Virus genome (UHGV): UHGV-1593293 | Strand: one strand, 5' to 3' | Length of the DNA: 11,721 nt | From: a virus | Part shown: piece after piece, positions 1 through 11,721 of the stretch | How positions within the stretch are numbered: position 1 is the first letter of the stretch | Layout of the letters: the number at the start of each line of letters is the position of its first letter | Notes under the pieces: model-generated | Database searches by the model: none | What the model was told of the DNA's origin: nothing | Seen by the model: the letters and a program-made list of their open reading frames with translations, nothing else | Position numbers and translations under genes: made by a program

Positions 1-54
1 AATGGCTTATACCCTACACGGGATAACTTAACTGATATCCCTTTTAACGGATAA
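1..54 (+). CDS. Possible 3' end of an upstream gene (frame 1 open from window edge to TAA at 52-54); would correspond to the orf201 position of P22
   Basis: Frame 1 is open from base 1 to the TAA at 52-54; only 17 codons are visible, so this is positional inference only. Confidence 0.2.
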   Translation, partial: NGLYPTRDNLTDIPFNG

Positions 55-66
55 ACGGAGCCAACA

Positions 67-309
67 ATGGCAGAGATTATTCCCATGACTGAAGAACAGA
101 AATTCCAGTTAGAGATTTACAAACTGGTCATGAACCAGAACGCAGCCGCAGAAGAAGCATTTCAATTCATTGGTACTGACGAGCTGAAGCTTGAGCTATT
201 CAAAATTCACTTCCAGTCAGGTGGCGCTAATTCAGATATCACGACCCGCACTATCGAAGCGGTGCGTAAATCGAAGGAAGCGTTAGACCTGTTCACTACC
301 GGAGCGTAA
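67..309 (+). CDS. Small hypothetical protein (80 aa), same position and length as P22 orf80 upstream of the small terminase gene
   Basis: ATG at 67 preceded by GGAG at 57-60; 80-aa ORF ending TAA 307-309; P22 has an 80-codon ORF immediately upstream of gene 3 (recalled from the P22 genome annotation). Confidence 0.6.
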   Translation: MAEIIPMTEEQKFQLEIYKLVMNQNAAAEEAFQFIGTDELKLELFKIHFQSGGANSDITTRTIEAVRKSKEALDLFTTGA

Positions 310-311
310 AC

Positions 312-383
312 ATGGCAACTCAAGGTTTCGACAACCCATCCAAATTCCGCGATGAATGGGATAAGCAAGCAGAAGGGAAATAA
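312..383 (+). CDS. Candidate 23-codon mini-ORF ([23 protein letters not shown]) filling the orf80-terS gap
   Basis: ATG 312-314 lies 7 nt after GGAG at 301-304; TAA at 381-383, 5 nt before the terS ATG. Too short to support by composition; spacing and SD only. Confidence 0.25.
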
Positions 384-388
384 TCAAT

Positions 389-877
389 ATGGCAGCACCA
401 AAGGGCAACCGATTTTGGGAGGCCCGCAGTAGTCATGGGCGAAATCCTAAATTCGAATCGCCTGAGGCGCTGTGGGCTGCTTGTTGTGAATACTTCGAGT
501 GGGTGGAAGCTAACCCGCTATGGGAGATGAAGGCGTTCTCGTATCAGGGTGAAGTGATACAAGAGCCTATCGCCAAGATGCGAGCGATGACCATTACCGG
601 CCTCACTCTGTTCATTGATGTGACGCTTGAAACATGGCGCACATATCGCCTGCGAGAAGATTTATCTGAAGTCGTTACGCGAGCAGAACAGGTCATCTAC
701 GACCAGAAATTCTCTGGCGCAGCCGCTGACCTTCTCAACGCTAACATCATCGCCCGTGATTTGGGCCTCAAAGAGCAGTCGCAAGTTGAAGACGTGACAC
801 CTGATAAGGGAGATCGCGATAAGCGACGCTCTCGTATCAAGGAGCTATTCAACCGTGGAACTGGACGCGATTCTTGA
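389..877 (+). CDS. terS: Terminase small subunit (P22 gp3-type, 162 aa)
   Basis: 162-aa ORF whose sequence ([29 protein letters not shown]...) I recognise as P22 gp3; same length as P22 gp3; contains the pac-like sequence; lies directly upstream of terL. Confidence 0.93.
657..678 (+). other. Candidate pac site (P22-type packaging initiation sequence) embedded in terS
   Basis: Sequence AAGATTTATCTGAAGTCGTTAC inside terS matches my recollection of the 22-bp P22 pac site, which lies within gene 3; exact boundaries are from memory. Confidence 0.55.
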
Positions 878-2354
878 TAACCTGAGCGACGAAGAGCAAA
901 TCGAATTGCTCGAGCTACTCGAAGAAGAAGAGAACTACAGGAACACACACCTGCTATATGAATTTACGCCATACAGCAAACAGCGTGAGTTCATCGACGC
1001 CGGGCATGACTATCCAGAGCGCTGTTTTATGGCTGGTAACCAGCTTGGTAAGTCATTTACTGGGGCTGCTGAAGTCGCGTTTCACCTTACCGGGCGTTAT
1101 CCGGGAACAAAAGGCTATCCGGCTGATGGTAAATATGGTGGGGAGTGGAAAGGTAAGCGTTTCTATGAGCCTGTTGTCTTCTGGATTGGCGGCGAGACAA
1201 ACGAGACTGTAACCAAAACGACTCAACGCATCCTGTGTGGTCGTATCGAAGAGAATGATGAGCCAGGCTACGGTTCCATACCTAAAGAAGACATCATTAG
1301 CTGGAAGAAGTCTCCTTTCTTTCCGAACCTTGTTGATCATCTTCTGGTTAAGCATCACACGGCTGATGGCGTTGAAGATGGCATTTCAATCTGCTACTTC
1401 AAACCATACTCGCAAGGCCGCGCTCGCTGGCAGGGTGACACAATCCACGGCGTGTGGTTTGACGAAGAGCCACCATACAGCATTTATGGCGAAGGTCTTA
1501 CCCGTACCAACAAATACGGGCAATTCTCAATTCTGACGTTTACCCCGCTGATGGGGATGTCTGACGTTGTTACCAAGTTCCTGAAGAATCCCAGCAAGTC
1601 GCAGAAAGTGCTCAACATGACCATCTATGACGCTGAGCACTACACCGACGAGCAGAAAGAGCAAATCATCGCATCCTATCCTGAGCATGAGAGAGAGGCG
1701 CGTGCTCGCGGTATTCCTACGATGGGTAGTGGTCGAATCTTCCAGATACCGGAAGAGACGATTAAGTGTCAGCCGTTCGAGTGTCCTGATCACTTCTACG
1801 TAATTGGCGGGATGGATTTTGGATGGGATCACCCGCAGGCGCAGGTTCAGCTTTGGTGGGATAAGGACGCAGACACAATCTACGTTTCACGCGTGTGGAA
1901 GGCGAAAGAAAAAACAGCCGTTCAGGCATGGGGATCTGTTAAATCATGGGCGCATAAAGTGCCAACCGCATGGCCTCATGACGGAAACCAGCACGAGAAG
2001 GGCGGCGGTGAGCAGCTCAAAGGGCAGTATGCAGATGCTGGTTTTATGATGTTGCAGGAGCATGCGACATGGCCTGATGGCGGTAATGCTGTGGAGCCTG
2101 GCATCACTGAATTGCGCGACATGATGCTCGATGGTCGCTTCAAAGTATTCAACACCTGTGAGCCATTCTTTGAGGAGTTCCGCCTCTATCACCGTGATGA
2201 AAACGGGAAAATCGTCAAGCTTAACGACGACGTTCTCTCAGCCGTTCGCTATGCATACATGATGCGCCGCTTCGCCAAAATGATGCGCGACATCAAAAAA
2301 CCAAAAGAGAAAAAGATACCAGCCCCAATCAGGCCCATCGCACGGAGAACTTAA
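855..2354 (+). CDS. terL: Terminase large subunit (P22 gp2-type, 499 aa), GTG start overlapping terS 3' end by 23 nt
   Basis: 499-aa ORF, same length as P22 gp2 and very similar to its recalled sequence ([30 protein letters not shown]...); AAGGAG at 839-844 upstream of GTG 855; ends TAA 2352-2354. Confidence 0.93.
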
Positions 2355-4520
2355 ATGGCCGACGAAAACAGACTCAATTCCATTCTGTGTAAGTTTGACG
2401 CGGACTGGATGGCGAGCGATGAAGCCAGAACCGAGGCGACAAATGACCTGTATTTTAGCCGAGTGTCGCAATGGGATGACTGGCTATCAAACTACACTAC
2501 CCTGCAATATCGCGGACAATTCGATGTTGTTCGCCCGGTGGTCAGGAAACTGGTAGCAGAGATGCGCCGGAACCCTATCGACGTTCTCTTCCGACCCAAA
2601 GACGGCGCTAATCCTGATGCTGCCGATGTGTTGATGGGAATGTATCGTACTGATATGCGCCATAACACGGCAAAGATTGCCGTTAACGTTGGCGTTCGTG
2701 AGCAGATAGAGTCCGGCGTTGGTGCATGGCGTCTGGTCACCCAGTACGAAGACAACGACCCAACAAGCAACAATCAGGTAATCCGACGCCTTCCAATCCA
2801 TGAAGCCTGCTCACACGTCATATGGGACGCCAGCAGCAAGCAGATGGATAAGAGCGACGCTAAGCACTGCACGGTGATTAACGCCTTGTCACGCAATGGC
2901 TGGAAAGAGTTCGCAGAGGATTACGGTATTGATCCGGACACCTTGCCATCTTTCCAGAATCCGAACGATAAATGGCTGTTTCCGTGGGTATCGAATGATG
3001 TCGTCTACGTCGCTGAGTATTACGAGGTCGAAGAGAAGAAAGAGAAAGTCTTCATCTACCGCGACCCGCTGACAGGTGAGCCGGTCAGCTATTTCCAGCA
3101 GGATATCAAAGACGTCATCGACGACCTGGCTAATCGTGGATTCATTAAGGTAGCAGAGCGTAAGGTCAAGCGTCGGCGTGTGTATAAGTCGATCATCACA
3201 TGCACACAGATACTGAAAGACCGCGAGAAGATAGCCGGAGAGCATATTCCAATCGTTCCAGTGTATGGCGAATGGTCCTTCGCTGGTGACAAGGAGTGCT
3301 ACGAAGGAGTGGTAAGGCTGACGAAAGACGGTCAGCGCCTTCGTAACATGATCATGTCATTCAACGCCGATATTGTTGCTCGTTCACCGAAGAAGAAACC
3401 GACCTTCTTCCCTGAGCAAATCGAAGGCTACGAATACATGTACGGTGGAAATGATGACTATCCGTACTATCTGCAGAACATGACCGATGAAAACGGTAAC
3501 GACCTGCCGATTGGTCCAATCTCCTACATGGAAAACCCTGAAGTGCCGCAAGCCAACGCTTACATGCTTGAGGCTGCCACCAACGCAGTGAAAGAGGTGG
3601 CTAGTCTTGGCGTGGATGCGCAGGCAGCAAACTCTCAGGTCGCTTTCGATACCGTCAATCAACTGAACATGCGGGCAGACCTTGAGACATACGTGTTTCA
3701 GGATAACCTGGCTACCGCAATGCGACGTGATGGCGAGATTTATGCCTCAATGGTCAACGATATTTATGACGTTCCTCGTCATGTAACGCTGACACTTGAA
3801 GATGGTAGCGAGAAAGACGTTCAACTATACGCGCAAGTTGTATATTACCAGTCCGGTAATGTGGTCACACTCAACGACATTCGCGGTCGCTATGAGTGCT
3901 ATACAGACGTTGGACCATCCTTCCAGAGTATGAAGGAACAGAACCGCGCAGAGATTCAGGAGTTGCTCACCAAGGTTCCGCAAGGTACTCCAGAGTTCCA
4001 GATGCTGATGCTGCAATACTTCACGCTGCTTGACGGTAAAGGCGTCGAGATGATGCGAGAGTACGCGAACAAGCAACTGGTGATGATGGGGCTGAAGAAA
4101 CCAGAAACACCTGAAGAGATGGAGATGGTACAGCAGGCTCAACAGCAGCCGCAGCAGCCATCAGCAGAGCAAATTCAGGCGCAGGGTATCCTTCTGCAAG
4201 GTCAGGCTGAATTGCTCAAGGCAGAGAACCAACAGGCGCAGATTCAGGTTGAAGCCGCCAAGGTTGAAGCCCAAAACCAACTCAACGCCGCGAAGATTGC
4301 GGAAATCTTCAACAATATGGACCTCGACAAGCAGGCAGAACTGCGTGAGTACCTCAAGCTCGTAGGTCAATTCCAGCAACAGCGCAGCAAAGATGCTCGC
4401 GCTAACGCTGAGCTGCTTCTTAAAGATGCAGACCAGACTCATTCACAACGCATGGATTTCGCGAATCTTATGCGTCAAGTTCAAATCCCCTCCGGCGGAG
4501 TAGCCGAGACACCTCAATAA
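2355..4520 (+). CDS. 1: Portal protein (P22 gp1-type, 721 aa) with long Gln/Ala-rich C-terminal helical region
   Basis: 721-aa ORF starting immediately after the terL stop; N-terminus ([18 protein letters not shown]...[10 protein letters not shown]...) and C-terminus (...[10 protein letters not shown]...SGGVAETPQ) match recalled P22 portal; P22 portal is 725 aa. Confidence 0.93.
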
Positions 4521-4533
4521 GAGAGAGTTAACC

Positions 4534-5445
4534 ATGGACCAAACCACCGACATTCAGGCTTCTGAAGAATTAACCCTGCCCGGCAATCATGCAGCGGCAT
4601 CTGCTGATGGCTTAGTTGTCGATAATGCCAACGACATCGCAGGTCAGGAAGAAGGCTTCGAGATTGTCCTGAAAGACGATGAGAAACCAAAACAAGACCC
4701 GGCAACTAATGCTGAATTTGCCCGTCGCCGCATCGAACGCAAACGCCAGCGTGAGCTTGAGCAGCAGATGGAAGCGGTTAAGCGTGGAGAGTTGCCGGAG
4801 CACCTGCGGGTGAACCCTGAGTTACCAAAACAACCAGACCCTAACGATTATCTTTCCGAAGACGCACTGGCTAAGTACGACTATGACCAGAGCCGAGCAC
4901 TGGCTGCCTTCCAGCAGGCAAACAGTGAATGGCAGATCAAGGCTATGGACGCACGAAGCCAGGCTGTCGCCGAGCAGGGGCGCAAAACTCAGGAGTTCAC
5001 CCAGCAATCAGCGCAATACGTCGAGGCAGCCCGTAAGCACTACGACGCAGCGGAAAAGCTCAATATCCCTGACTATCAGGAGAAAGAGGATGCATTCATG
5101 CAACTGGTGCCGCCAGCAGTCGGTGCCGACATCATGCGCCTCTTCCCGGAGAAATCCGCTGCTCTCATGTATCACCTTGGTGCTAATCCTGAGAAAACAC
5201 GCCAGTTGCTGGCGATGGACGGGCAATCCGCGCTGATTGAACTCACTCGACTGTCAGAACGTTTAACTCTCAAGCCTCGAGCCAAGCCTGTTTCAGAAGC
5301 CCCGTTACCTGATGAACCCATTCAGGGACACGCTGTTGCTGCAAATATCTCTGCGATTGAAAAGCAGATGGAAGCGGCAGCAAACAAAGGGGATGTAGAG
5401 ACATACCGCAAGCTCAAGGCGCAACTGAATAAAGGAATTCGATAA
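4534..5445 (+). CDS. 8: Scaffolding protein (P22 gp8-type, 303 aa)
   Basis: 303-aa ORF, same length as P22 gp8; acidic, helical, Ala/Glu/Gln/Lys-rich composition; sits between portal and coat; stop overlaps coat start (TAATG). Confidence 0.9.
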
Positions 5446-6746
5446 TGGCATTAAAAGAAGGGCAGTTAGTTACTTACGCTATCGATGAAATCATCGAAAC
5501 CGTCCAGAACCTGACGCCAATGGCGTCCAAAGTGACAAAATACACCCCTCCGGCAGAATCCATGCAGCGTTCAAGCAACACCGTGTGGATGCCTGTTGAG
5601 CAGGAAGCGCCAACTCAGACTGGCTGGGATTTAACTGGCAAGGCAAGCGGGATTCTGGAACTCTCCGTGAAATGCAACATGGGCGATCCGGATAACGATT
5701 TCTTCGAGCTTCGTGCAGATGACCTGCGTGATGAGCGTTCTTACCGTCGCCGCATCCAGGCATCCGCCAGAAAACTGGCGAATAACATTGAGTCAGCGAT
5801 TGCCAAACAGGCAACTGAAATGGGCTCGCTTGTTGTTCACGATACCCGCGCAATTGGTCCATCATCTACTGACCTGTCTGGCTGGGATTTTGTGTCTGAT
5901 GCAGAGCGCCTGATGTTCTCCCGTGAGCTAAACCGCGATATGGGCATCAGTTACTTCATGAACCCTGACGATTACCGCAAATCAGGCCGCAACCTGGTAG
6001 ATGGTGACATCTTTGGTCGCGTTCCTGAAGAAGCGTATCGTAACGGTACTATTCAGCGTCAGATTGCTGGCTTTGATGAAATTCTTCGCTCACCGAAACT
6101 TCCGGCAGTTACCAAGTCAACCGCTACTGATGTAACTGTGACTGGAGTGCATAAGTTTAAGCCGCAGGCATACACCCTTGATACCGATGGTAACAAAGAG
6201 AACGTCGACAACCGTGTTGCAACGGTGACCGTATCCTCCACCGCCGGATTTAATCGCGGCGACAAAATCAGCTTCACTGGTGTGAAATTTCTGTCTCAGA
6301 TGGCGAAGAACGTGCTGACTGATGATGCGACTTTCTCAATCACCCGTGTGATCGATAGTACTCACATCGAAATCACGCCGAAGCCGATTGCACTGGATGA
6401 CGAGTCACTGACAAAAGAAGAGAAGGCTTACGCTAATGTAAACACCTCTCTTGCTGCGAGCGCTACGGTAAACGTTCTGAATGTGGCAACAACCACCGCT
6501 AACGTGTTCTGGGCTGATGACTCAATCCGCCTGCTGTCTCAGCCGATCCCGGTAACCCATGAACTGTTTGCTGGTATGAAAACGTCTTCCTTCAGCATTC
6601 CTGGCATTGGTGTTAACGGCATCTTCGCAACGCAGGGTGATATCAACACTCTGTCTGGCAAGTGCCGTATTGCTGTGTGGTATTCAGCATGTGCTGTACG
6701 ACCAGAGGCAATTGGTGTTGGTCTGCCTAACCAGACTGCGCGATAA
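5445..6746 (+). CDS. 5: Major capsid (coat) protein (P22 gp5-type, 433 aa)
   Basis: 433-aa ORF (P22 coat 430 aa) directly after scaffold with ATG overlapping the scaffold stop; followed by a strong terminator, as expected for the most highly expressed structural gene. Confidence 0.9.
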
Positions 6747-6750
6747 CCAG

Positions 6751-6775
6751 AGGGAGCTTCGGCTCCCTTTTTTAT
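6751..6775 (+). terminator. Rho-independent terminator downstream of coat gene
   Basis: AGGGAGC-TTCG-GCTCCCT perfect 7-bp GC-rich stem with a TTCG tetraloop (6751-6768), followed by T-run TTTTTTAT; starts 5 nt after the coat stop codon. Confidence 0.8.
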
Positions 6776-6787
6776 CTGGAGACAAGC

Positions 6788-7024
6788 ATGACACACATGA
6801 TCTTTCGTCATGGAGACATGAAGAAATGGAAAGGCGTTGGATACGACTTTGAAATCGTGAAAGCCGAAGAGCTTCAGGAATATCTGGATGCTGGTTGGTT
6901 TTCACATCCTGATGACCTTTTGAAGGATGTTGCAGAGCCAGAGCCAGAGCCAGAAGAAAAACAGCGTAAAAAGCCTGGTCGAAAACCTAAGGCGGCAGCA
7001 GATGAACCTGACAACGAAGGGTGA
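6788..7024 (+). CDS. Small hypothetical protein (78 aa) in the P22 orf69 position between coat gene and gene 4; acidic EPEPEP stretch followed by basic KKPGRKPK tail
   Basis: ATG 6788 lies 8 nt after GGAG at 6777-6780; 78-aa ORF; 3' end overlaps the gene 4 start by 23 nt; P22 carries a small ORF (orf69) at this position as I recall. Confidence 0.5.
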
Positions 7025-7502
7025 TTTAGTTCTTGCGGCATTACGTAAGCTCGGTGTGGCATCAAATGCCACGTTAACCGATGTCGAACCGCAGTCTATG
7101 GAAGACGGCGTTAACGACCTTGAAATGATGATGGCTGAATGGCTTGGCGGTGATGCGTCACCAGGTATCAACGTTGGCTACATTTTCGCTGATGCAGATG
7201 TCGCTCCAGATCCTGGCGATGAACACGGTTTATCAAATAACGCTATCAATGCCGTCATTTTCAACCTTGCCTGCCGCATTGCTCCGGATTATGCGCTGGA
7301 AGCGTCTGCAAAACTTATAACCACTGCCAGATACGGGAAAGAGAGACTCGTCAAACTGTCTGCAATGGATAGGGCAAAAGCCGCTAAATGTAAGTCCGGT
7401 TATCCAAACCGTATGCCTGTTGGTAGTGGTAACCAGTTGGCGAAGTGGAATGGTTGGAATTACTTCCACCGAAAGGAACCTTGCGATAACGGGAGCGAAT
7501 AA
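7002..7502 (+). CDS. 4: Portal-associated head-completion / tail accessory protein (P22 gp4-type, 166 aa)
   Basis: The ORF track gives 6927-7502, but the ATG at 7002 yields 166 aa (P22 gp4 length) beginning [21 protein letters not shown]..., which resembles recalled gp4; AAGG upstream at 6989-6992; stop overlaps gene 10 start (TAATG). Confidence 0.8.
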
Positions 7503-8920
7503 TGCCTATTCAGCAACTTCCGCTTATGAAAGGTGTCGGCAAAGACTTTCGAAACGCCGACTATATCGACTATCTGCCAGTGAATATGCTGGCTACACCC
7601 AAAGAAATCCTCAACAGCAGCGGATATCTTCGCTCATTCCCGGGCATTGCCAAACGTTCTGATGTGAACGGTGTATCTCGAGGCGTCGAGTACAACATGG
7701 CGCAGAATGCTGTTTATCGTGTGTGTGGTGGCAAGCTGTACAAAGGAGAAAGTGAAGTCGGTGACGTTGCCGGAAGTGGTCGCGTATCAATGGCGCATGG
7801 TCGGACATCACAGGCAGTAGGCGTTAATGGTCAACTGGTCGAGTATCGCTATGATGGCACGGTTAAAACCGTCTCAAACTGGCCTACAGACAGCGGATTC
7901 ACGCAGTATGAGTTAGGTTCGGTCCGTGACATTACGCGCTTACGTGGGCGTTATGCGTGGTCAAAAGACGGTACTGATTCATGGTTTATCACTGACCTTG
8001 AAGACGAATCGCATCCTGACCGCTACAGCGCACAATATCGTGCCGAGTCGCAGCCTGACGGCATCATCGGAATCGGAACATGGCGAGACTTCATCGTCTG
8101 CTTTGGTTCATCGACGATTGAGTATTTTTCCCTGACTGGTGCAACCACCGTTGGTGCTGCTTTGTATGTCGCCCAGCCATCGCTGATGGTGCAGAAAGGT
8201 ATTGCCGGGACTTACTGCAAAACGCCGTTTGCTGATTCCTATGCGTTCATCAGCAATCCGGCAACGGGTGCGCCGTCTGTATACATCATCGGCTCCGGTC
8301 AGGTGTCACCAATCGCCAGCGCGAGCATTGAGAAAATCCTCCGCTCCTACACTGCTGATGAACTGGCTGATGGCGTGATGGAATCGTTGCGGTTTGATGC
8401 TCATGAGTTGCTGATTATCCATCTTACGCGTCACGTCCTCGTGTACGACGCATCTTCAAGCGCCAATGGCCCGCAATGGTGTGTGCTGAAAACAGGCCTG
8501 TATGACGATGTGTACCGCGCTATCGACTTCATTTTCGAAGGCAATCAGATAACGTGCGGCGATAAGCTGGAATCTGTTACCGGGAAATTGCAGTTCGATA
8601 TCAGCAGCCAGTACGACAAGCAGCAGGAACACCTGCTGTTTACTCCGTTGTTCAAAGCGGATAACGCCAGAGTGTTTGACTTTGAGGTTGAATCGTCAAC
8701 TGGCGTTGCGCAGTACGCCGACCGCCTTTTTCTCTCTGCAACCACTGACGGCATCAATTACGGTCGTGAGCAGATGATTGAGCAGAATGAACCGTTCGTT
8801 TACGACAAGCGTGTTTTGTGGAAGCGTGTCGGGCGAATAAGGAAAAATGTCGGCTTCAAATTGCGCGTTATCACAAAGTCACCTGTCACTCTGTCTGGCT
8901 GCCAGATAAGGATTGAGTAA
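7502..8920 (+). CDS. 10: Tail hub / head-completion protein (P22 gp10-type, 472 aa)
   Basis: 472-aa ORF, identical in length to P22 gp10 and at the expected position after gene 4; start overlaps gene 4 stop and its own stop overlaps the gene 26 start. Confidence 0.85.
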
Positions 8921-9621
8921 TGGCTGATTCGAATCTCAACACCCCTGTTATTGTGCAGGCGACGCGGCTCGATACATCAATCCTTCCACGCAATATATTC
9001 AGCCAGTCTTACCTGCTGTATGTCATTAATCAGGGGGCTGATGTCGGCGCAATTGCCGGGAAGGCAAATCAGGCTGGTCAGGGCGCTTACGATGCTCAGG
9101 TGAAAAACGATGAACAGGATGTCGAACTGGCTGACCACGATGCAAGAATCACCGCAAACACAAAAGCGATAAATCTCCTTGAGGTCAGGTTAACAACCGC
9201 CGAAGGGAAGATAGTCGTACTGCGTAGCGATGTTGATTACTTGCTGGATGAAGTTATCGATATTCAGGCGCATCTGGTCACTGTTGACAAAAGACTGGAT
9301 GACGTAGAAAACGATGTCTCTGGCATTAAGAGTGATTACGTATCGAAAACCGTAACCAAATTGCAGTCTCTTGCGTCACCGCTGGATGTAAAAACATCAT
9401 ATTCAGTTGATGGAATTCAGGTTGTTGGAGCAAGAAATACCGGATGGACTGCAGCCACAGGTACACCTCTTCTTGGCTCATTCAACGCTAACCAGTCATA
9501 CACGGTCGGCACTACGTACACACAATCCGAAGTCGCGGCTCTCGCTACAGGTTTGCAGCAGGCGCGGCAGCGTATTCTGGCGCTTGAAACGGCACTTAGA
9601 TTACATGGGCTGATTGACTGA
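8920..9621 (+). CDS. 26: Tail needle / plug protein (P22 gp26-type, 233 aa), trimeric coiled-coil fibre
   Basis: 233 aa, same as P22 gp26; N-terminus ([25 protein letters not shown]...[48 protein letters not shown]) and C-terminus (...[35 protein letters not shown]) match recalled gp26. Confidence 0.9.
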
Positions 9622-10076
9622 TGATTACATTCAAACCAACGCGAAACATCGACCTGATCGAAGCAGTCGGAAATCACCATGACATTATTGCCGGAAGCAA
9701 CAACGGTGATGGATACGACTACAAGCCTGAATGCCGTTACTTTGAGGTTAACGTGCACGGTCAGTTTGGCGGCATTGTTTACTATCAGGAGATTCAGCCG
9801 CTGACATTCGATTGCCACGCCATGTACCTGCCAGAGATTCGCGGCTTCAGCAAGGAAATCGGGCTGGCGTTCTGGCGATACATTCTGACTAACACCACCG
9901 TTCAGTGCATCACATCGTTCGCTGCACGCAAATTCCGCCACGGGCAGATGTACTGCGCAATGATTGGCCTTAAGCGTGTAGGAACCATCAAGAAATACTT
10001 CAAAGGCGTGGATGACGTGACGTTTTACAGCGCCACACGCGAAGAACTAATCGACTTCCTGAATCACGGGAGATAG
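9621..10076 (+). CDS. 14: Gene-14-position protein (151 aa), function unknown; Cys/His-rich
   Basis: 151-aa ORF between the tail needle and gp7 genes, where P22 gene 14 lies; ATG overlaps the gene 26 stop (TGATG). I do not recognise the sequence itself; the assignment is by synteny. Confidence 0.6.
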   Translation: MITFKPTRNIDLIEAVGNHHDIIAGSNNGDGYDYKPECRYFEVNVHGQFGGIVYYQEIQPLTFDCHAMYLPEIRGFSKEIGLAFWRYILTNTTVQCITSFAARKFRHGQMYCAMIGLKRVGTIKKYFKGVDDVTFYSATREELIDFLNHGR

Positions 10077-10078
10077 CC

Positions 10079-10771
10079 ATGTTATATGCATTTAAGCTGG
10101 GCAGAAAACTGCGCGGCGAGGAACCTTATTGCCCTGAAAAAGGCGGGAAAGGTGGCAGTTCTGATAAAAGCGCAAAGTATGCAGCAGAAGCTCAGAAGTA
10201 TGCTGCAGACCTGCAAAATCAGCAGTTCAACACCATCATGAACAACCTGAAGCCGTTTACTCCTCTGGCTGATAAGTATGTCGGCAGCCTCGAGAACTTA
10301 TCGTCTCTGGAAGGGCAAGGTCAGGCGCTTAACCAGTATTACAACTCTCAGCAGTATAAAGACCTTGCAGGTCAGGCTCGCTATCAGAGTCTGGCGGCAG
10401 CGGAAGCAACAGGTGGATTGGGTTCCACCGCAACCAGTAATCAGTTAGCAACAATCGCACCAACGCTTGGTCAGCAATGGCTATCTGGTCAGATGAACAA
10501 CTACCAGAATCTGGCAAATATTGGTCTTGGCGCACTGCAAGGTCAGGCAAACGCCGGGCAGACATATGCCAACAACATGAGTCAGATTTCGCAGCAAAGT
10601 GCGGCTCTTGCAGCGGCAAATGCCAACAGACCATCAGCAATGCAATCTGCTATTGGCGGAGGTGCGTCTGGTGCTATTGCTGGGGCTGGACTTGCGAAAT
10701 TAATTGGTTCATCAACTCCGTGGGGGGCTGCGATCGGCGGCGGTCTTGGTCTGCTTGGCTCGTTGTTTTAA
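10079..10771 (+). CDS. 7: Ejection (internal virion) protein (P22 gp7-type, 230 aa), Gln/Asn/Ala/Gly-rich
   Basis: 230 aa (P22 gp7 229 aa); GGGAGA SD at 10068-10073; low-complexity Q/N/A/G composition and a glycine-rich hydrophobic C-terminus typical of P22-like ejection proteins; correct synteny. Confidence 0.8.
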   Translation: MLYAFKLGRKLRGEEPYCPEKGGKGGSSDKSAKYAAEAQKYAADLQNQQFNTIMNNLKPFTPLADKYVGSLENLSSLEGQGQALNQYYNSQQYKDLAGQARYQSLAAAEATGGLGSTATSNQLATIAPTLGQQWLSGQMNNYQNLANIGLGALQGQANAGQTYANNMSQISQQSAALAAANANRPSAMQSAIGGGASGAIAGAGLAKLIGSSTPWGAAIGGGLGLLGSLF

Positions 10772-10780
10772 GGGGTAATC

Positions 10781-11560
10781 ATGGCTACGTGGCAACAGGG
10801 TATTAATTCTGGTGGTTTTCTGGCTGGCATCGGTACGCAAAATGAGAATGCGCCAAAGGCAAGCGACATTAACGCAACGCTTGGTCTGATCCGCGAAAAC
10901 AATGAACTGGCTCGCTCAGGTGCAAATAACGTTGGCCTGACCGCCTTACGTGGTCTGGCTGGAGTTGCTGATATTTACAATCAGGAACAGCAACAGAAAG
11001 CTATTAGTGCGTTCAATAAGGTTCATGCTGATGCATGGGCTTCTGGTGATCCATCGGGACTATTTAAGTTTGCCCAGGAAAATCCAGCGTTTGTTGCACA
11101 GGCACAACAGGCGTTTTCAGGTCTTAATGATCAGCAACGCAACGATATGGGCGATTTAGCCATGAGGGCTAACGTCGCTCTTTCTCAGGGACCGGAAGCC
11201 TACAGTAAATTCATTACTGACAACAAGGACAGGTTAAATCGCGTTGGTGCTAATGCTGACTGGATGATTCAGACAGGTATCCAGAATCCAGAGCAGCTAT
11301 CACACATGCTGACTACTATGTCTCTCGGTGCACTTGGGCCAGAAAAGGCGTTTGCTGTTCAGGATAAGATGGTTGGTCGCCAGCAGGAGCAGCAAAGAAT
11401 TAACGAAACCATTCGCAATAATGACATGACGAATGCGAGGGCTATTAGGGGGCAGGATCTTTCCTATAAGGCTCAAATGGCAAGACTGAATCACGACAAG
11501 TATGTGTTTAAGCAGTCACAGGCGGCCCTTGAAAGAGCAGGACAACTTCAGGATATGTAG
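10781..11560 (+). pseudogene. 20: Ejection protein gene (P22 gp20-type) truncated after 259 codons by IS2 insertion; stop codon TAG is supplied by the first three bases of IS2
   Basis: ORF begins with a good SD (AAGGGG) right after gp7, as gene 20 does in P22, but P22 gp20 is about 471 aa as I recall; the frame ends at 11558-11560 exactly where the IS2 terminal repeat (TAGACTGGCCCCC...) begins. Confidence 0.8.
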
Positions 11561-11598
11561 ACTGGCCCCCTGAATCTCCAGACAACCAATATCACTTA
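11558..11598 (+). repeat. IS2 left terminal inverted repeat (IRL), approximate extent
   Basis: First roughly 41 bp of the IS2 end as recalled; the precise inner boundary is not determinable without the right end for comparison. Confidence 0.6.
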
Positions 11599-11648
11599 TT
11601 TAAGTGATAGTCTTAATACTAGTTTTTAGACTAGTCATTGGAGAGCAG

Positions 11649-11721
11649 ATGATTGATGTCTTAGGACCGGAGAAACGCAGACGGCGTACTACACAGGAAA
11701 AGATCGCTATTGTTCAGCAGA
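11649..11721 (+). CDS. insC: IS2 transposase OrfA (InsC), N-terminal 24 codons; partial, runs off window
   Basis: ATG 11649 lies 5 nt after GGAG 11640-11643; translation [24 protein letters not shown] is the recalled N-terminus of IS2 OrfA, including the start of its helix-turn-helix region. Confidence 0.85.

Follow-up and report, generated by a model that had tools for sequence, protein, structure and literature searches.

The window, by which we mean the whole stretch of 11,721 nucleotides analysed here (UHGV virus genome UHGV-1593293), carries a P22-like late operon that runs into an interrupted gene 20 and ends within an insertion sequence. Upstream of gene 20 lie full-length homologues of P22 gp3, gp2, gp1, gp8, gp5, gp4, gp10, gp26, gp14 and gp7, and the operon matches the Pfam families GP3_package, Terminase_6N/6C, P22_portal, Phage-scaffold, P22_CoatProtein, P22_Tail-4, Phage_stabilise, DUF2824, P22_gp7 and Inj_translocase. 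The likeness to P22 extends to the order and sizes of the genes (3-2-1-8-5-4-10-26-14-7-20), to the N-terminal Inj_translocase domain of the gene 20 product and to the DNA itself, with about 82% identity over 86% of the window, and the coliphages HZ41, APC_JM3.2 and IME10 (Lederbergvirus) share about 96% DNA identity with it. Two small conserved reading frames in the late region, at 67-309, upstream of the small terminase gene, and at 6788-7024, between the coat gene and gene 4, encode a DUF2560 protein of unknown function (Pfam E 1e-43) and a protein of 78 amino acids belonging to phrog_1175 (unknown function), respectively.

Gene 20 departs from that of P22 in two ways. Unlike the P22 gene, it is interrupted, at codon 259 of 449, the full length being that of the uninterrupted allele of E. 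coli W46 described below; furthermore, its C-terminal half is of a non-P22 mosaic type, with DNA similarity to P22 ending at about 11376-11379, and the full-length W46 protein matches phrog_2534 with an E value of 2.4e-177 as against 5.3e-119 for the P22-type phrog_917. Ends of similarity recur in comparisons with other phages: with APC_JM3.2 and IME10, among others, they fall near 10795, where gp7 gives way to gene 20, and with P22, HZ41 and a large number of Salmonella phages they fall within gene 20, at about 11376-11382. Because these ends recur, the C-terminal half of gene 20, which is the landing place of the insertion sequence, can be regarded as a separate mosaic module.

The 259-residue product of the interrupted gene matches PF16928 (Inj_translocase), described in Pfam as 'DNA/protein translocase of phage P22 injectosome', with an E value of 9.3e-110 over profile positions 1-217 of 218, the domain occupying residues 12-228. 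It also matches phrog_2534 and phrog_917, 'released from the phage upon host infection', and the disrupted reading frame at 10781-11560 is the homologue of P22 gene 20. The initial annotation had placed an IS2 element within the phage structural operon; this position holds and can now be given precisely as the gene-20-type ejection gene, whose product is shortened from 449 to 259 amino acids. The features on either side of the junction are collected in Table 1.

Table 1. Features of the interrupted gene 20 and of the adjoining IS2 end, in window coordinates.
Feature	Position	Strand	Basis
5' 259 codons of a P22 gene-20-type ejection ('DNA transfer') protein gene	10781-11557	+	Pfam PF16928, phrog_2534, phrog_917
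ATATG, presumed 5-bp target	11553-11557	.	GGATATG/GATG in W46 (slash, insertion point); flanks in CH4804; right copy, beyond the window end, presumed
IS2 left end, first 164 of 1331 bp, continuing past the window end	11558-11721	+	100% identical to L004 1601-1764
TAG stop of the truncated gene 20, from the first three IS2 bases	11558-11560	+	Translation ends ...AGQLQDM*
IRL, 42-bp left terminal inverted repeat	11558-11599	+	41/42 against PMC3299598
IS positions 39-48, region with the putative OrfA repressor docking site	11596-11605	+	Position and footprint from PMC3299598; function by homology
PIRL, putative weak extended -10 promoter of IS2, TGATAGTCT	11605-11613	+	IS positions 48-56; identity to the published element
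orfA, first 24 codons (HTH regulator, N-terminus of the OrfAB transposase)	11649-11720	+	Identical to residues 1-24 of L004 OrfA

From 11558 the window reads TAGACTGGCCCCCTGAATCTCCAGACAACCAATATCACTTAT... / TAGACTGGCCCCCTGAATCTCCAGACAACCAATATCACTTATTTAAGTGATAGTCTTAATAC..., and from there to its end all 164 nucleotides agree exactly with the start (positions 1-164) of a complete IS2 of 1331 bp carried by E. coli 20Ec-P-124 (L004 1601-2931), a copy annotated as 'IS3-like element IS2 family transposase' and bounded by the termini TAGACTGGCCCCC... and ...GGGGCAAATCCA. Many other E. coli records hold IS2 copies that match the same stretch at 100%. The part of the element visible in the window is thus its left 12% (IS positions 1-164). 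In a megablast search with 11558-11721 against 5,426 complete E. coli genomes, 4,755 contained the stretch, at a median of 3 and a maximum of 41 places per genome, and 7,163 records from these genomes cover at least 80% of the 164-nt query, almost all of them at 95% identity or more. As at least 80% of the stretch is present in 4702 of the 5426 genomes, a chance match to IS2 is ruled out. The initial annotation, which had recognised the last 164 bases as the left terminus of IS2 followed by the first 24 codons of orfA, is therefore borne out on both points, by alignment to complete IS2 copies at 100% identity, by agreement with the published terminal repeat at 41 of 42 positions, and by identity of the 24 codons to the start of the L004 OrfA.

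The published left end of IS2 consists of the 42-mer TAGACTGGCCCCCTGAATCTCCAGACAACCAATATCACTTAA followed by ATAAGTGATAGTCTTA (Lewis et al. 2012; PMC3299598), and over 58 nt of it the window differs at IS positions 42 and 43 only, where AA is replaced by TT. The IRL motif TAGACTGGCCCCC...CACTTAA is accordingly present with a sole mismatch at position 42, A to T, and IS positions 39-48 read TTATTTAAGT in the window and TTAAATAAGT in the published element. The window thus agrees with IS2 (IS3 family, IS2 group) in its first 164 nt, in its IRL, in the positions of PIRL and of the orfA start and in the N-terminus of orfA, and is unlike the laboratory reference, with its AA, at positions 42-43. The TT, at window positions 11599-11600, forms the centre of the palindrome CACTTAnnTAAGTG, within the published OrfA docking site TAAATAA, and the change flips this centre such that the same heptamer is found on the opposite strand, shifted by 1 bp. 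Complete IS2 copies, such as that of L004, also carry the TT allele, and the window falls within a minority of IS2 alleles, 545 of 7,363 matching records being at least 99% identical.

The first four bases of PIRL (TGAT) lie at IS positions 48-51 of the published element (PMC3299598). Our generic two-hexamer sigma-70 promoter and terminator scan of 11400-11721 gave no prediction, PIRL, as an extended -10 promoter that lacks a -35 element, being invisible to such a scan, and an Rfam scan of the window returned no family. The sequence GGAGAGCAG leads directly into the orfA ATG at 11649, which corresponds to IS position 92, and GGAGAG is found ahead of this ATG at 11640-11645. In the complete L004 element, OrfA, in IS2 a protein of 14 kDa, has 121 amino acids and matches Pfam HTH_Tnp_1 (E 1.8e-19), an A6G slippery site is present at position 409, and the OrfAB fusion of 409 amino acids is annotated in RefSeq as arising by programmed frameshift. 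In IS2 it is orfB that brings the DDE catalytic domain to the OrfAB transposase, by a -1 frameshift at A6G. PIRL, IRL, the docking region and orfA are assigned in the window by position and by identity to published IS2, and the functions given to them are to that extent putative.

An uninterrupted form of the same allele exists in E. coli W46 (NZ_CP163115), which matches window positions 1-11557 in a single piece at 100.0% identity, with no mismatch in the 4.8 kb aligned base by base. At the empty site W46 reads ...CTTCAGGATATG followed by GATGTTTTGTCTC..., and gene 20, which continues beyond the insertion site as ATATGGATGTTTTGTCTC..., is intact and encodes 449 amino acids. The left boundary is unambiguous, W46 being identical to the window through 11557 and divergent from 11558. 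The W46 prophage looks complete, spanning about 39 kb between intS, which adjoins a tRNA-Arg gene, and torI; downstream of gene 20 it carries a gene-16 homologue, an Arc/antirepressor (immI-like) region and the tailspike gene. P22-like late regions are common in this host, with 187 complete E. coli genomes carrying at least 80% of the window. The W46 background is also rich in IS2, as judged from the 15 places in it that match a 1022-nt query, with about 14 IS2 copies.

Since an allele identical over 11.5 kb exists without the insertion sequence, the insertion must be very recent and must have taken place in E. coli. The match of the flank to the allele with the empty site and the intactness of all other late genes likewise point to a recent acquisition, as the initial annotation had proposed. 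Its further reading of the locus as a prophage, of P22-like type but outside the Salmonella context, also agrees with the W46 comparison: the host is E. coli, W46 holds the identical prophage, and this sequence is identified there as a prophage by its tRNA-Arg gene and intS. The window itself holds phage and IS2 DNA without host DNA, and the presence of IS2 in an essential gene argues for its prophage status.

Another insertion into the same gene is found in E. coli CH4804 (NZ_CM166344), where a complete 1331-bp IS2 (L001 4849-6179) occupies the same 5-bp target in the opposite orientation. It is flanked on both sides by ATATG, the canonical 5-bp duplication, with the junctions reading ...CAGGATATG, then TGGATTTGCCCC..., through the reversed IS2, to ...GGGGGCCAGTCTA, then ATATGGATGTTTTG.... 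Over 4 kb, the prophage flank in CH4804 shares 94.6% identity with the window and is thus about 5% diverged, its IS2 carries AA at positions 42-43 where the window has TT, and among the complete E. coli genomes CH4804 is the only one with its reversed-IS2 junction. The window and CH4804 represent two independent IS2 insertions at one 5-bp target.

We propose a model for the origin of the locus that best accommodates these observations. A copy of IS2, an element of the IS3 family that moves by a copy-out/paste-in route via a minicircle, would have inserted into gene 20 of a P22-like E. coli prophage of Lederbergvirus type, co-oriented with the late operon; we hold a recent insertion of this kind into the gene-20-type ejection gene to be highly probable. 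The junction coincides to the nucleotide with base 1 of IRL and so bears the signature of transposition. In the first step of IS2 transposition the IRR end is cleaved and joined beside IRL, giving a figure-of-eight and then a minicircle, whose abutted ends form the strong promoter Pjunc, and in the second step both ends attack the target and direct repeats are left (PMC3299598). The complete insertion would then consist of a 1331-bp IS2 ending ...TTAAGTGATAACAGATGTCTGGAAATATAGGGGCAAATCCA, followed by ATATGGATGTTTTGTCTCTTAACTCACAG, and we think it likely, if with somewhat less assurance than the insertion itself, that the element is complete with its 41-bp right inverted repeat and the ATATG duplication; a mere fragment of IS2 is the less likely possibility.

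The window ends in IS2, before orfB and the right junction, and very likely does so because the IS2 repeat caused a contig end. This leaves room for a different history, in which the IS2 end results from a rearrangement, either an IS2-induced deletion or inversion of neighbouring DNA or homologous recombination between two IS2 copies, and the window is a prophage remnant whose head-gene block has been separated from the 3' part of gene 20, gene 16, the immI-like region, the tailspike gene and int. Recombination-capable IS2 copies are plentiful in E. coli, as the genome counts given above, including that of W46, attest. Furthermore, neither the scans with the downstream flank nor the search with the C-terminal part of the protein gave a contig joining the IS2 right end to ATATGGATG...: the former found 51 metagenomic and IMG/VR loci, with the insertion site empty in every one, and the latter, with the C-terminal 191 amino acids, gave partial proteins only, including contig-edge fragments that start 52 nt past the site and are unrelated to the IS. 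Against a rearrangement, however, stand the 100% identity of the flank to that of an intact prophage, which speaks for a very recent single event, and the clean, simple insertion with duplication at the same 5-bp target in CH4804, and the missing right junction is more simply explained by a source assembly that lies outside the collections searched. We therefore consider a rearrangement improbable.

The contig edges 52 nt downstream were also considered as candidate IS junctions and rejected, as they look like a mosaic or assembly branch point. Nine contigs (L057-L065) from seven samples or assemblies, two of them from one E. coli assembly, start within one base of this same point, and their product begins LTGKAATS...; the shared start looks like a mosaic boundary or a shared segment at which assemblies break.

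The junction could alternatively be an artefact of assembly, produced by false extension of a contig end into a repeat or by a chimeric join of two sequences, the real gene 20 being free of IS2. The window does end inside a multi-copy repeat, as a draft contig would, and its junction turned up nowhere else in the public collections searched: in the window's orientation it is absent from the 5,426 complete E. coli genomes, and exact-pattern scans for the left junction returned none in the GTDB species representatives, IMG/VR or the JGI metagenomes. A chimeric join would not be expected, however, to land on the first base of the 42-bp IRL, nor on the 5-bp target that IS2 has used in the finished genome of CH4804. 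A second, independent assembly, moreover, breaks at the identical nucleotide. The 259-residue product, which is absent from the clustered protein collection, was located by exact-protein look-up in one ENA contig, ERZ773525 NODE_39 (L003, 27,866 nt), which differs from the window by 1 mismatch in 10,777 nt (at window position 3843), has the same 259-codon reading frame and ends exactly at window position 11557, without IS sequence. Its end fits a repeat or a polymorphic junction. That NODE_39 stops at the junction itself, not a k-mer length into the repeat, would fit two coexisting continuations after 11557. Given the exactness of the join and the break of NODE_39 at the same nucleotide, an artefact is very improbable.

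The least probable reading, which we give hardly any credence, is that of a viable phage carrying IS2 as cargo, with gene 20 expressed as residues 1-259 plus a C-terminal piece whose translation restarts from the ATG in the duplicated ATATG: the truncated product does retain the whole conserved Pfam domain, the CH4804 annotation does have a 191-aa ORF from that ATG, and amber fragments of P22 gp20 are reportedly encapsidated (as cited in PMC4992974), but no phage record carries the IS2/gene 20 junction, the site is empty in all 51 of the related viral and metagenomic loci, the restart ATG is preceded by no evident Shine-Dalgarno sequence, and an extra 1.3 kb would enlarge a genome packaged by the headful.

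Under the proposed insertion, 1.3 kb of foreign DNA would split the head and tail genes from the distal genes, namely what remains of gene 20, the homologue of gene 16 and, farther downstream, the tailspike gene, and a polar effect of the insert on the gene-16 homologue is possible. The E-proteins of P22 are absolutely required for DNA delivery and dispensable for assembly, and their loss is lethal to the phage (PMC4992974). Since these proteins are essential for delivery, a prophage with an interrupted gene 20 should, by analogy with P22 genetics, be unable to give infectious progeny; it may remain inducible and assemble DNA-filled particles, without infectious ones among them, and would in this way be stranded in its host. 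For annotation, the value of the case is that the window is to be read as part of a P22-like prophage of E. coli and not as DNA of a free phage, and its gene 20 as a pseudogene made by IS2. Events in which an insertion sequence ubiquitous in E. coli disrupts an essential gene in a common type of prophage are ordinary and already known in kind, and the case adds an example of insertion sequences immobilising prophages.

The recurrent target is the sole mildly interesting point of the case. End-targeting is known for IS30 and IS911, and resemblance of the target to the IS2 ends was considered here on the same lines and rejected, as it did not rise above shuffled controls. Whether ATATG at codon 258-259 is a true preferred IS2 target, hit at least twice independently, in opposite orientations and by slightly different IS2 variants, such that IS2 insertion there forms a recurrent route to stranded P22-like prophages, we regard as evenly balanced. 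Non-random insertion by IS2 has been described at the 'hot target' of bacteriophage P1 (Sengstag et al. 1983) and in hemB (Lewis et al. 1994), both as cited in PMC3299598, and the present case resembles these in the repeated use of one target by IS2, here in a phage genome, and differs in that only two events are known at ATATG. That IS2 has used the same 5-bp target in two unrelated strains provides a small data point on the unexplained choice of targets by this element.
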